DNA from: Nonlabens ponticola
Lineage (GTDB): Bacteria > Bacteroidota > Bacteroidia > Flavobacteriales > Flavobacteriaceae
Length of the DNA stretch: 32,000 bases
Assembly (NCBI RefSeq): GCF_003966335.1
Contig: NZ_CP034549.1
Coordinates: 120,001-152,000, forward strand
Reading direction: 5' to 3'
A program made the translations under genes and the position numbers. This document shows positions 10,957-29,316 of this stretch, in pieces. How positions within the stretch are numbered: the stretch's first letter is position 1; each line of letters begins with the position of its first letter. The notes under the pieces were generated by a model, which worked only from the letters and a program-made list of their open reading frames with translations, searched no databases and was not told where the DNA came from.

Positions 10957-11895
10957 TTACTTTTCAGATTTTTCTCTGTAAATAAATTCCCGTTTATTTA
11001 AAATGAATTTAGTTGTAGAAGGAACCATTTTAAATAATCTTACTTCAGGATATATTTGACGGACAATACTCATTATCTTATCAAAATGTTCGTCACTAAC
11101 CTTACATCCGAAGTACAGCGCTTTTAAAGATCCTTTGGGATATCGGTATTTCTGATTATTATTATGATGTAAAAGCCTTAATTCTTCTTCATGAGACCAT
11201 TCAATGGATTTATGGGTAGCAAGTTTCATCAAGGATTGCAAATCACTTTCTTTTGAAAAGAACAAATCAGATATAATATTTGGAATTTCAGATCGATAAG
11301 TGACTTCAATTGTTTTTGAAAATGGCAGCACAGTAGAGTCGAATTCTAGACATATACCTTTATGTCCATCGGCATAATACGACCACATTAAAAGATTATC
11401 AGAATTCTTAGAAAAACAAGATATTCCCATTTTAGAGAATTTATTGACTCTAATCTCATTCAGAACATTTACAATTACCCCAGTAAGGTGAATCTTCAAT
11501 TCGTTTAACAAATCAAACACTTCTTCGGAAAATAGTTCTTTACTATTTCCTCCAATCATCGACAAATAATTTAAATAGGCTTTTTTGCTTCGATACTTGA
11601 CTAGTTTATGTTCACTATCAAATTGAAATATGTAATCTATATGATCCACACAAAATGAATAATACCTATCAAGCGAAATTGATTTGTTCATTATTTCCAT
11701 CAAATCTCCTTGATCGAAACGTCCTTTCCATAATTTAGTAACTAGCTCTACAAATATCTTATCGCTTAATCGTTCAACTGACGCTGGGTGAAAAGTATCG
11801 AACGGATCATTAAAGAAACTAGGTGAGCTAAAGTAAATCTGCTCGTTAGAGAGATTTTCTAATGTGTATTTATTTATAGAACAATATTTAAACAT
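10957..11895 (-). CDS. DUF2971 family protein
   Basis: A 312-aa protein. The N-terminal motif is FKYCSINKYTLENLSNEQIYFSSPSFFNDPFD. The central motif is GISCFSKNSDNLLMWSYYADGHKGICLEFD. Both are the characteristic DUF2971 blocks as I know them. The gene is visibly more AT-rich than its neighbours. Confidence 0.75.
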   Translation of the reverse strand: MFKYCSINKYTLENLSNEQIYFSSPSFFNDPFDTFHPASVERLSDKIFVELVTKLWKGRFDQGDLMEIMNKSISLDRYYSFCVDHIDYIFQFDSEHKLVKYRSKKAYLNYLSMIGGNSKELFSEEVFDLLNELKIHLTGVIVNVLNEIRVNKFSKMGISCFSKNSDNLLMWSYYADGHKGICLEFDSTVLPFSKTIEVTYRSEIPNIISDLFFSKESDLQSLMKLATHKSIEWSHEEELRLLHHNNNQKYRYPKGSLKALYFGCKVSDEHFDKIMSIVRQIYPEVRLFKMVPSTTKFILNKREFIYREKSEK

Positions 11896-11929
11896 CAGAA
11901 TACAACCATCAAATTTCTAGTATAGCTTC

Positions 11930-12397
11930 TCAACAGAACTCAATTATTTTTTTCTCAAAATCAATAGGAATTGCACCTCCAGAACAACCACCAATTTCTT
12001 CGTGGTAAATTTCCTTAGGATTGTCTGTGATGATCCAAGTTCCTGAGTGATGTTTGTAAATGAAACTATCTAAAATGGAATCAGGACCGCTAAGACTAGT
12101 TTCTTCAGTTTTCATGATTGTTATATGATTTCCATCAATATGAATCTTAACTGGTGTGTTTGGCATTCGGCCATTCCATTCGGCGAAGTACAGGTCATAA
12201 ATAAAAGTACCTTGAGGAATTGAATCGTTTTGTTTATGAGTATTTCCGATCTCATTCTCAGTCAAAATAGCTGCTTCTTGATCACCGTAATCGTCTGGTG
12301 TTGAGCCCATAATATTTACAGCAAACACCAGTGCCACGATTGCTATTGTAGAAAAGATGGCAACTAAAAATAAAATGATTTTAACGCTTGCTTTCAT
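11930..12397 (-). CDS. Single-pass membrane-anchored hypothetical protein
   Basis: A 155-aa protein with one N-terminal TM helix (IILFLVAIFSTIAIVALVFAV) followed by a soluble domain. I recognise no family. Its start codon lies 3 nt after the rsmG stop. Confidence 0.6.
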   Translation of the reverse strand: MKASVKIILFLVAIFSTIAIVALVFAVNIMGSTPDDYGDQEAAILTENEIGNTHKQNDSIPQGTFIYDLYFAEWNGRMPNTPVKIHIDGNHITIMKTEETSLSGPDSILDSFIYKHHSGTWIITDNPKEIYHEEIGGCSGGAIPIDFEKKIIEFC

Positions 12398-27561: not shown

Positions 27562-27582
27562 ACCCTGAACTGGTTTCAGGGT
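27562..27582. other. 8-bp stem hairpin ACCCTGAA-ctggt-TTCAGGGT immediately after the pnp stop
   Basis: A perfect inverted repeat at 27562..27569 and 27575..27582. It has no T-run and is distinct from the true terminator 20 nt downstream. Confidence 0.7.
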
Positions 27583-27651: not shown

Positions 27652-28170
27652 CTACTCAAATGACATTACTGCCGTATTGATAATTAGGCAATCGTCATCA
27701 GTATCAGGGTGCGCTACTCTACTGTTATAAGCATGAATCATTTCATTATACAGTGCCCAGATCTCTAACACCTTGCGATCTGAAGCGTTTAACTTGTTAA
27801 GGTTTTCGGTGTTGGGACGATAGATTGTTTTCCGTGCATGGCTATCAGTATCGTAAGATAAAAGCATTTCGTCAGCTTCTACATCAATCAAAAAGTTTTT
27901 AAACTCAAGCCATGGCGATTTATACTTGTATTTTCTACCATTCACGGTAATTCGTCTCCCATCATGTTTAAACTCAACTCCATCGACACTCAGGATATCG
28001 TTTGTCATGAAATGATTATCATGAGCAACATATAATGGATCAATTTGTAGGCCTACCTTGTAGTCGCCAGTATCATAAATCAAGGTGTCAGATATGATCT
28101 CAAACTTGTGTATCGCGTTCTGCGCCAATGAAAAAATTGGTAATAATAGAAGAAGTAAAAGTTTATTCAT
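27652..28170 (-). CDS. Exported hypothetical protein
   Basis: The start is placed at the ATG at 28170 (MNKLLLLLLLPIFSLAQNA, a signal peptide), giving 172 aa. I recognise no family. It lies 62 nt downstream of, and co-oriented with, the rhodopsin gene. Confidence 0.6.
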   Translation of the reverse strand: MNKLLLLLLLPIFSLAQNAIHKFEIISDTLIYDTGDYKVGLQIDPLYVAHDNHFMTNDILSVDGVEFKHDGRRITVNGRKYKYKSPWLEFKNFLIDVEADEMLLSYDTDSHARKTIYRPNTENLNKLNASDRKVLEIWALYNEMIHAYNSRVAHPDTDDDCLIINTAVMSFE

Positions 28171-28232
28171 GATGATTGGTTTCCTAAACCTCATCAAGTT
28201 GCATGCCAGCTAAAAATATGTTCAGCAACCTA

Positions 28233-29078
28233 CTACCCTACATTCATCGCAAACTCTTTGGAACTAGTATCCAGGCGATCTTCCAATAATCGAGATGCCA
28301 TCAAATAGGCAATGATACCTACACCAGCTTTATTTACTACATCAGCTATCGAGAAAGTGATGTGTATCCAACTGTTGTCCATTTCAGGAAAGAGCGCAAC
28401 AAGAATATACCCAATAGGGTAAACGCCCCATAAAGTCACGACTGTTAGCGACATGTATTTATAGGCACGACGTTCTAAAGTCTTGGCCTCATGGCGGTAT
28501 TTATTCCATATCTGATACATGCCTACCAGCACCATAGTATAACCTACGGTTGAAATCGCACCCCAAATCATACGTGATTGTACCATAATGGAACCGTCTG
28601 CATCCAACTGTTGCTGCCCAATAAACCCAGTGGCAATCATGAAAATATCTCCCAAAACTACCAGCGCAACAATCACAGCGATTCTTGAGTACTTGATGCG
28701 CAAGACACTGATCATTTTGATCAATAATAGCGGTGTGGTCACCATCCAGTCCATGTAACGCAACTGACCTATAGCGTTGTAGCCATTGCGCTTAAATTCA
28801 TTGCGGGTCGTCTCATCTGTGATAGTCTGTAATTCTTGGAGAAAATCTTTATAGTAATCGCTTATAATGAAGTAGCTAATGCCTGCCACCACACAGATAA
28901 TTGCTGTAAACACACGACTTGTATTATGTTCTGGCGCCACGTGCGTTCTGGTAAACCAGCTGAAAAAAAAGGATGCTACAAAACAAAAGAATGCGACCAT
29001 CATCACATAATAAGTGGCTACTTCTAGTAACCCTAGGCCATCGCCTACTGCTGGTATAAATGAGTTCGCTAAATCCAT
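28233..29078 (-). CDS. Microbial (type 1) rhodopsin with D-T-K helix-C motif
   Basis: A 281-aa protein with 7 predicted TM helices. Helix C is R107-YM-D110-WMV-T114-TPLLLI-K121. Helix F is TLW217GVY220P221. Helix G is SIAD246VVNK250AGVG, which carries the Schiff-base lysine. I verified the codons for D110 (28749..28751), K121 (28716..28718) and K250 (28329..28331) on the sequence. Confidence 0.9.
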   Translation of the reverse strand: MDLANSFIPAVGDGLGLLEVATYYVMMVAFFCFVASFFFSWFTRTHVAPEHNTSRVFTAIICVVAGISYFIISDYYKDFLQELQTITDETTRNEFKRNGYNAIGQLRYMDWMVTTPLLLIKMISVLRIKYSRIAVIVALVVLGDIFMIATGFIGQQQLDADGSIMVQSRMIWGAISTVGYTMVLVGMYQIWNKYRHEAKTLERRAYKYMSLTVVTLWGVYPIGYILVALFPEMDNSWIHITFSIADVVNKAGVGIIAYLMASRLLEDRLDTSSKEFAMNVG

Positions 29079-29189
29079 AATGAATTGAATGTTGAGCTAC
29101 AAAGTAGGAAATAGCACACGCAATCAAACGTGCGTTAAGAAAGTTTTGAAGTTATAGACTCCTTTGAGCGTATCAGTTTATAGAATTTA

Positions 29190-29205
29190 CGCTTTCGCGA
29201 AAGCG
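29190..29205. repeat. Palindromic repeat, copy 8 (16/16)
   Basis: Exact 16-mer in the divergent region between the rhodopsin gene (start 29078) and the T9SS cargo gene (start 29317). It has 111 nt on each side. Confidence 0.95.
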
Positions 29206-29316
29206 AGGTCTTAAAAAACATATCACCGGAAATACGAAATGTTCAAGCATCAAAATGGTAAGAAATTTAATGCTTATAAATATTATTTTTATTCAACCTA
29301 TTTGTAATCCTTCCAA

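Follow-up and report, generated by a model that had tools for sequence, protein, structure and literature searches.

A type-1 rhodopsin of Nonlabens ponticola with lysine at the proton-donor position: a probable outward proton pump from a Bacteroidota-centred family

The window analysed here, a stretch of 32,000 nucleotides from Nonlabens ponticola (NCBI RefSeq assembly GCF_003966335.1, contig NZ_CP034549.1, positions 120,001 to 152,000), is ordinary flavobacterial chromosome, and the gene under study is a rhodopsin gene on its minus strand. The open reading frame (ORF) starts with ATG and encodes 281 residues; the protein is 100% identical to WP_126444600.1 (AZQ42805.1, UniProt A0A3S9MUF4), which is annotated as "bacteriorhodopsin [Nonlabens ponticola]". 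The Pfam profile Bac_rhodopsin (PF01036) covers residues 23-261 with 105.6 bits against a cut-off of 24.6 (E 3.3e-30), far above chance, and no NCBIfam model matches. The profile match and the seven-helix fold predicted by AlphaFold2 place the protein among the type-1 rhodopsins. Furthermore, the Schiff-base lysine and the residues of the retinal pocket are present: K250, W111, W217, Y220, P221 and D246 align with K216, W86, W182, Y185, P186 and D212 of bacteriorhodopsin (BR). Judged by its sequence, the protein is a type-1 rhodopsin of the retinal-binding type, which would be expected to bind retinal. An initial annotation, made from the DNA letters, had placed a retinal-type rhodopsin at exactly this position and had proposed a profile search as a check; the ORF list and the outcome of that search agree with it, and all the residue numbers that it quoted (R107, D110, T114, L118, K121, G173, W217, Y220, P221, D246 and K250) are correct.

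The register of the key positions was established by pairwise HMMER alignments of the Nonlabens protein to the Exiguobacterium sibiricum rhodopsin (ESR), xanthorhodopsin (XR), HeimdallR1, psXR and GR, and by a MAFFT alignment that also contained BR, green-absorbing proteorhodopsin (GPR), KR2 and family members. The reference sequences of BR, GPR and KR2 were checked against the PDB, with perfect agreement for BR and KR2 and one signal-peptide residue of difference from the best-matching construct for GPR; those of ESR, XR, psXR, GR and HeimdallR1, taken from the HMMER alignments, are without termini. The codons of S68, D110, T114, L118, K121, G173, D246 and K250 were checked by hand against the DNA (Table 1). 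In the HMMER alignments, RYMDWMVTTPLLLIKM is placed over RYIDWLVTTPLLLVKF of ESR, RYIDWILTTPLMVFKF of HeimdallR1 and RYVDWLLTVPLLTVEL of XR, and both methods equate D110, T114 and K121 with D85, T89 and D96 of BR. The helix-C motif is thus Asp-Thr-Lys (DTK), with lysine at the donor position, as first proposed, and the suggested comparison with BR, GPR, XR, KR2 and ESR leaves this register unchanged. Beyond the motif, R107 corresponds to BR R82 and D144 to BR D115, so that the full set of pump residues is present (R107, D110, T114, D144, W111, W217, Y220, P221, D246 and K250). The release pair E194/E204 of BR is absent, its positions being occupied by L229 and I238. The assignments of Leu118 to the spectral-tuning position and of Gly173 to the position of BR Trp138 and XR Gly156 are likewise supported by the alignment. 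At the position of His75 in proteorhodopsin (PR), the initial annotation had read isoleucine and had concluded that the His-Asp pair is missing; the pair is indeed missing, because the residue in question is Ser68 (AGI-S-YF), beside Ile67.

Table 1. The rhodopsin gene, its key codons and adjoining features; positions are counted from the first nucleotide of the window
Feature	Position	Strand	Basis and correspondence
Rhodopsin coding sequence	28233..29078	-	ORF list; PF01036 E 3.3e-30; 100% identical database protein; seven transmembrane helices in the AlphaFold2 model
Ser68 codon AGC	28875..28877	-	Position of PR His75 / ESR His57 / XR His62; Ser in 108/111 family members
Extended B-C region, residues 72-106 (…YYKDFLQELQTITDETTRNEFKRNGYNAIGQ)	28761..28865	-	Alignment blocks and AlphaFold2 secondary structure; family-specific
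Asp110 codon GAC	28749..28751	-	Predicted Schiff-base counterion and proton acceptor; BR D85 / GPR D97; Asp in 109/113 family members
Thr114 codon ACC	28737..28739	-	BR T89 / GPR T101
Leu118 codon TTA	28725..28727	-	Spectral-tuning position; GPR L105 / BR L93; Leu in 109/113 family members
Lys121 codon AAA (ttt on +)	28716..28718	-	Cytoplasmic proton-donor position; BR D96 / GPR E108 / ESR K96 / HeimdallR1 K92
Gly173 codon GGT	28560..28562	-	BR W138 / XR Gly156 / HeimdallR1 Gly; fenestration position; Gly in 113/113 family members
D246-V-V-N-K250	28329..28343	-	Predicted second counterion (BR D212) and retinal Schiff-base Lys (BR K216)
181-aa ORF	27652..28197	-	35 nt downstream of the rhodopsin gene; N-terminus signal-peptide-like (MNKLLLLLLLPIFSLAQ)
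Divergent intergenic region	29079..29316	.	Between the rhodopsin gene and the type IX secretion system-type CHU_C/PKD gene; holds the 16-bp palindrome CGCTTTCGCGAAAGCG at 29190-29205

The DTK motif is not peculiar to the Nonlabens gene. A search of 5.8 billion proteins yielded 114 relatives at 36-69% identity, after which identity falls to about 33%; 113 of these relatives could be aligned. The norm of the family is DTK, together with Ser at the His position, Leu at the tuning position and Gly at the fenestration position: the motif is found in 97 of the 113 members and also in about 45 core-clade genomes, and the Schiff-base lysine is retained in 109 of 110. The conservation of Lys121 across the aligned proteins indicates purifying selection. 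Among 1.84 billion representative proteins clustered at 50% identity, an exhaustive HMMER search found only 15 at E≤1e-30, and DTK is the second commonest motif among the roughly 130 nearest full-length representatives (28 vs 46 DTE).

When a single genome of each GTDB species was scanned, 80 loci were obtained, which show how widely the family is distributed. The residue signature S-R-D-T-L-K-G-D-K, accompanied by a B-C segment of 30-37 residues ending in YNAIGQxRY, both of which the Nonlabens protein has, recurs in Hymenobacter (many species, including H. nivis), Spirosoma and Fibrella, in Mucilaginibacter and other Sphingobacteriaceae, in Lewinella, Neolewinella and Saprospiraceae, and in Ilyomonas, Cyclobacteriaceae, Leeuwenhoekiella, Trueperaceae and Chthoniobacterales. 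A more distant group from Acidobacteriota (Pyrinomonadaceae), with identities of 33-35%, also shows DTK and the long B-C segment and retains the histidine. The family thus appears to be well populated, Bacteroidota-centred and apparently without a name, with members in Trueperaceae/Deinococcus and Chthoniobacterales in addition to the Acidobacteriota group. It also appears to be largely uncharacterised; full-text searches of the literature found no paper on the Bacteroidota DTK clade or on the Nonlabens protein. The family seems common in Bacteroidota and Acidobacteriota of soil, lichen and cold habitats, where rhodopsin phototrophy is little studied. As regards the origin of the Nonlabens gene, its GC content (0.41, with most of the window at 0.37-0.46) shows no anomaly, and a recent horizontal acquisition visible in composition is accordingly rejected; an older transfer would be compatible with the taxonomic pattern.

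There are also variants that depart from the DTK norm. Deinococcus members carry DTA or DTG; the DTQ, DTT and DTH paralogues come from Spirosoma wherever the source is named; the GTT and STT forms occur in metagenome proteins and one Cytophagales metagenome-assembled genome (MAG); and a lysine-less ATQ form is found in Spirosoma endophyticum (L043:10001-10795). Several Spirosoma and Spirosomataceae genomes hold two family members, one with DTK and one with DTT, DTQ or no Schiff-base lysine. Many divergent relatives (P0108, P0124-P0130, P0134, P0137 and P0157) keep the long B-C insertion and have Cys, Val, Ile, Thr, Gln, Ala or Leu in place of the Schiff-base lysine; such proteins usually lack the Asp acceptor as well (ATQ, GAQ, ITQ) and form a radiation of lysine-less opsins to which no function is assigned. 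The Acidobacteriota sequences form a coherent DTK group (Pyrinomonadaceae and Blastocatellaceae; L060 and L063-L080), mostly within a rhodopsin-crtY-blh cluster, which suggests that rhodopsin phototrophy with a lysine donor is widespread among the Acidobacteriota of soils. The rhodopsin-blh(-crtY) loci found in MAGs named 'Janthinobacterium lividum' (L013, L020, L042 and L054) resemble those of Mucilaginibacter and Hymenobacter, and the bins are probably mislabelled or contaminated.

The relationships were analysed by a neighbour-joining (NJ) tree (268 columns, Kimura distances, 300 bootstraps), a distance-based method applied here with a small reference set. The core clade is recovered in 100% of bootstraps and its Bacteroidota part in 98%. 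The Nonlabens protein groups with P0002 and Leeuwenhoekiella (99%), and this group joins Cyclobacteriaceae and Lewinella (100%); it is 40-69% identical to members of the clade. The core clade, the Acidobacteriota and a third DTK group (P0116-120) come together at 79%; the addition of HeimdallR1 to this assemblage receives 48% and that of ESR 5%. The phylogeny, which had been proposed to decide whether the protein forms its own clade, accordingly separates it from ESR within the small set of references used.

The AlphaFold2 model, computed from a 29-sequence family alignment, has a mean predicted local distance difference test (pLDDT) score of 88.2, a predicted template modelling (pTM) score of 0.86 and seven long transmembrane helices. 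A Foldseek comparison with the PDB gives 317 rhodopsin chains at E≤1e-3, and the top 50 listed hits are microbial rhodopsins only. Matches to psXR, Kin4B8, CryoR1/2, XR, HeimdallR1, ActR, ESR, TR and GR fall at E of about 1e-9, with template modelling (TM) scores of 0.7-0.89 and 21-25% identity, and none of them is clearly the closest. The most distinctive element is the B-C region, which by alignment is about 20 residues longer than its counterpart in ESR or GPR. In the model, helix B (49-83) and helix C (89-124) each extend about ten residues beyond the membrane span, with pLDDT values of 86-93 in the B-C region; residues 72-106 are therefore predicted to form a helical hairpin. From the standard type-1 topology, this hairpin should project on the extracellular (periplasmic) side. 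The B-C insert, of 30-37 residues, is present in all core-clade and Acidobacteriota members.

The genomic surroundings of the relatives bear directly on function. The blh gene for retinal synthase (PF15461, E 3e-48) lies directly downstream of the rhodopsin gene in 39 of the 80 loci, and the lycopene cyclase gene crtY (PF05834, E 6e-48) is found in 21. Linkage to blh is typical of energy-conserving pumps. Together with pump residues that are strictly conserved and a lack of transducer genes, it points to an energy-conserving retinal pump. In the marine-like subclade, which comprises the Nonlabens window, L081 and L082, the rhodopsin gene stands alone.

The genes of the window are, in order, those for Na+-NQR subunits, a plug protein of the type IX secretion system (T9SS), ApaG, aldehyde dehydrogenase, RsmG, an aminotransferase, TrkH/TrkA, UbiE, an outer-membrane beta-barrel protein, a SpoU methylase, BamA, fructose-bisphosphate aldolase, an AccD-like protein, polynucleotide phosphorylase (PNPase), the 181-aa secreted protein and the rhodopsin, followed by a divergent gene for a PKD/CHU_C T9SS cargo protein. 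The 181-aa ORF may be co-transcribed with the rhodopsin gene. Neither Pfam nor NCBIfam offers a match to it, and its candidacy as a conserved operon partner is ruled out, as no homologue stands beside the rhodopsin gene in the 80 related loci. The sole terminator-like hairpin on the minus strand downstream of this gene pair (27562-27582) may be a bidirectional terminator shared with pnp. Upstream of the rhodopsin gene, sigma-70 matches do not exceed the expectation from shuffled sequence, in a scan that does not cover Bacteroidota promoters, and there is no exact copy of the Bacteroidota -7 box TAnnTTTG.

Some further features were observed in the window and at related loci. The perfect 16-bp palindrome CGCTTTCGCGAAAGCG occurs in nine copies (≤2 mismatches) within the 32 kb, vs 0.01 expected by chance; the copies, of 16 bp each, start at 1419, 7978, 8251, 12847, 17276, 22512, 25194, 29190 and 31665, six of the nine are intergenic, and their flanks are not conserved. 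The palindrome is a candidate that could represent a repetitive extragenic palindromic (REP)-like element or the binding site of a global regulator. The segment at 10957-12397, with a GC content of 0.31 vs about 0.41 elsewhere, holds a DUF2971 gene and a 155-aa ORF without Pfam match, and may be a small foreign insertion. At Spirosoma loci, a DUF305/DUF4142 gene lies directly upstream of the rhodopsin gene or its paralogue on the same strand (L044:9281-9937); the equivalent position is occupied by such a gene in L027, L043, L048-L050, L052, L053, L056, L062 and L070.

The Nonlabens rhodopsin is placed in the proteorhodopsin/xanthorhodopsin superclade as a light-driven pump, almost certainly one that moves protons outward; that it does so with K121 taking part in reprotonation is quite probable by analogy with characterised relatives. 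On the model of BR, PR and ESR, all-trans retinal would be bound at Lys250 as a protonated Schiff base. Photoisomerisation would lead to the transfer of the Schiff-base proton to Asp110, within a counterion complex formed by Arg107, Asp110 and Asp246, and the extracellular proton release would proceed without a pair of the BR Glu194/Glu204 type (positions Leu229 and Ile238). The Schiff base would then be reprotonated from the cytoplasm via Lys121, in place of the Asp or Glu donor of BR and PR. This last step is proposed because of the precedents of ESR K96 and of the heimdallarchaeial DTK pump. The equivalent lysine of ESR is a transient proton shuttle that takes up a proton from the bulk during M decay, and not a pre-loaded carboxylic donor.

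The term "DTK pumps" is already in established use (PMC10519204, PMC10154332). ESR is described as an outward H+ pump with K96 as donor (cited in PMC4871484, PMC10519204), and according to the passages that cite Balashov 2013, K96 facilitates the reprotonation of the Schiff base (PMC4871484, PMC12137139, PMC10519204). A Heimdallarchaeota DTK rhodopsin transports H+ outward in E. coli (PMC7148096), and HeimdallR1 combines the putative donor K92 with a Gly fenestration, its pumping being enhanced by xanthophyll antennas (PMC12137139). DTK is also carried by planctomycete sequences of the ESR branch (bioRxiv 10.1101/2022.08.01.502354). The statement of the initial annotation that a lysine donor is known only from ESR is therefore too narrow, given HeimdallR1 (PDB 9jtq) and the other Heimdallarchaeota and planctomycete cases. 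Of the two readings that it had offered, an uncharacterised functional class is not favoured, since DTK is the norm in a clade with frequent linkage to blh, a hallmark of ordinary retinal pumps; a variant proton pump with a different reprotonation mechanism is the best reading.

Three positions would shape the properties of such a pump. The main departure from ESR, HeimdallR1, PR and XR is, on sequence grounds, the missing His partner: with Ser68 at its position, Asp110 is expected to have a different pKa, and pumping to cover a different pH range. Under the GPR L105/Q105 rule, green absorption is predicted from Leu118. Gly173 predicts an open fenestration, which would expose the ring of the retinal in the manner of xanthorhodopsin, Kin4B8 and HeimdallR1. 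In XR, Kin4B8 and HeimdallR1 the open fenestration allows xanthophyll antennas (PMC12137139), and by analogy the Nonlabens protein could plausibly hold a hydroxylated carotenoid, such as flavobacterial zeaxanthin, as its antenna.

Several points weigh against this assignment. Both studied pumps with a lysine donor, ESR and HeimdallR1, have a His that partners the acceptor Asp; this His is missing here, so that the transfer of their mechanism is not exact. Even among the known cases, moreover, the part that the lysine plays as a true donor is not the same. Both the fenestration and the placement of the K121 side chain are deduced from alignment and not from geometry. The retinal supply of N. 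ponticola is unproven: Pfam scans of all 27 larger ORFs found no blh or crt gene in the 32-kb window, to which the scan was confined and for which the initial annotation had already reported their absence. The H. nivis "proteorhodopsin" (HnPR) is described as a fast outward H+ pump where Kondo et al. 2024 is cited in PMC12227055 (its reference 112), and probably corresponds to the in-clade protein WP_140465072.1; pump function of the Nonlabens protein and its clade is suggested by homology. Finally, the cytoplasmic cavity of HeimdallR1 is open and joins its lysine to the bulk solvent (PMC12137139).

The last observation leads to the main rival, an outward pump that works without a donor, like the DTG and DTS pumps (PMC8927995), in which a water-filled cytoplasmic cavity would reprotonate the Schiff base and Lys121 would only shape or gate the cavity. 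The cavity that links K92 of HeimdallR1 to the solvent is unusually extensive (PMC12137139), and the donor position tolerates His, Gln, Thr, Ala and Gly in paralogues and Deinococcus members that keep D110 and K250. However, the lysine is kept in 97 of 113 members across four phyla, and ESR K96 is reported, in the sources citing Balashov 2013 (PMC4871484, PMC12137139), to facilitate reprotonation; the donor-less mechanism is accordingly considered unlikely. A photosensory or regulatory role, in place of energy conservation, is very improbable. The divergent paralogues (DTH, DTQ, DTT, GTT) and lysine-less derivatives of Spirosoma and its relatives may be non-pumping, and some database entries have been named "sensory rhodopsin" automatically, but in the Nonlabens protein the pump motif is complete, and all of its closest relatives carry DTK. 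Known sensory types, furthermore, have Tyr, Phe or Met at the donor position, often without the Asp acceptor (PMC10519204), and no transducer or signalling gene adjoins the rhodopsin gene, whose neighbours encode PNPase, the secreted 181-aa protein and the T9SS cargo protein. Equally hard to credit is a relic or inactive opsin, that is, an intact gene in a bacterium without retinal supply or a gene that is not expressed. The lack of blh and crt genes in the window, the solitary rhodopsin gene of the marine subclade and the lack of a recognised promoter would agree with it. Against this, the ORF is full-length, every functional residue is conserved and the composition is ordinary; many rhodopsin-bearing flavobacteria have blh and crt elsewhere in the genome, as is generally known (Nonlabens dokdonensis, Table 1 of PMC3595038), and the sigma-70 scan is not suited to Bacteroidota promoters.

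With the outward pump using K121 as the preferred reading, the kind of machine is known and current understanding is not overturned. Outward pumps with a lysine donor are already known from ESR and HeimdallR1; the Nonlabens protein is in a separate, Bacteroidota-centred family, whose variant features are the replacement of His by Ser and the helical B-C hairpin. A more far-reaching interpretation, which is possible but doubtful, would see here a pump family not yet described as such, spread over Bacteroidota, Deinococcota, Verrucomicrobiota and the distant Acidobacteriota, that gained the lysine shuttle independently of ESR, lost the His-Asp pair, added a helical B-C hairpin on the periplasmic side and kept the carotenoid fenestration open. 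If this were true, a distinct pH dependence and reprotonation pathway would be expected, as would zeaxanthin-type antennas in marine flavobacteria; the radiation of lysine-less opsins would likewise have arisen from this family. If verified, the family would constitute a third independent lineage of lysine-donor pumps and the first without the His partner of the acceptor Asp, so that the lysine shuttle could be studied apart from the His-Asp pair. N. ponticola, a cultured marine flavobacterium of a class that typically makes zeaxanthin, could serve as a tractable host for asking if pumping with the help of an antenna also occurs outside xanthorhodopsins, proteorhodopsins and HeimdallRs.

Among the characterised rhodopsins of the PDB, the best HMMER matches are ESR (5e-21), XR (1e-20) and HeimdallR1 (1e-20); the ClR and NaR entries follow at 1e-10 to 1e-8 (down to 1e-11 for the flavobacterial/PR group), with GPR further still. 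ESR (PDB 4hyj), the prototype 'DTK pump', resembles the Nonlabens protein in the DTK motif, in Leu at the tuning position, in Asp at the BR-115 position and in the lack of the Glu194/Glu204 pair; it is the best sequence match, with Foldseek TM scores of 0.73-0.89. In contrast, the identity is only 27%, and ESR joins the Nonlabens family in just 5% of the 300 NJ bootstraps. In ESR, His57 pairs with Asp85 and a Ser occupies the fenestration position, where the Nonlabens protein has Ser68 and Gly, respectively; ESR is without the long B-C insertion, and the FPLLxG sequence that follows its donor-position lysine (KFPLLLG; PMC10519204) is replaced in the Nonlabens protein (KMISVLR). Membership in the ESR family proper is ruled out by the missing His, the missing FPLLxG and the 5% bootstrap value.

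HeimdallR1 shares DTK, Gly at the XR-156 position and Asp at the BR-115 position, and the NJ tree places it, with weak support (48%), as sister to the wider family. It pumps H+ outward and binds hydroxylated xanthophylls (PMC12137139), an antenna which for the Nonlabens protein is plausible by analogy. Unlike the latter, the archaeal protein (26% identity) keeps the His partner, has Met at the tuning position and a short B-C loop, and possesses a helix in intracellular loop 3 (ICL3), for which no counterpart is predicted in the Nonlabens protein; membership in the HeimdallR family is ruled out. The xanthorhodopsin-like proteins XR, GR, Kin4B8 and psXR share the Gly fenestration and Leu at the tuning position and have HMMER scores similar to that of ESR, and psXR and Kin4B8 are the top Foldseek hits (E 1.3e-9). 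They differ by the DTE motif with its Glu donor, by the His62-Asp96 pair and by a shorter and different B-C loop, at 24-27% identity. The xanthorhodopsin family is excluded by K121 and S68 (no DTE, no His62), even though G173 agrees with the Gly156 criterion.

The initial annotation had seen a closer affinity to the flavobacterial PR/NaR/ClR group than to ESR. The WGAIS block and a Gly at the BR-138 position do recur in KR2 and ClR, which come from the same host class. This affinity is nevertheless contradicted by the HMMER ranking, by the identities (27% for ESR vs 22% for GPR and 19% for KR2), and by the different motifs and separate tree clades of the group. The NQ rhodopsins (NaR with NDQ, ClR with NTQ) are ruled out by D110 and K121 in place of Asn and Gln, together with the low identity to KR2; proteorhodopsin (DTE) is ruled out by K121 and S68, which replace Glu108 and His75, together with the low identity to GPR. 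Another close counterpart is found within the clade itself: the rhodopsin of H. nivis (WP_140465072.1; L024) shares 43.5% identity by MAFFT columns (44.8% by BLASTP), the identical S-R-D-T-L-K-G-D-K signature and the B-C insertion. The two systems differ in that H. nivis has blh directly downstream, a gene missing from the Nonlabens locus, and in that H. nivis is terrestrial and cold-adapted, whereas the Nonlabens host is a marine flavobacterium.

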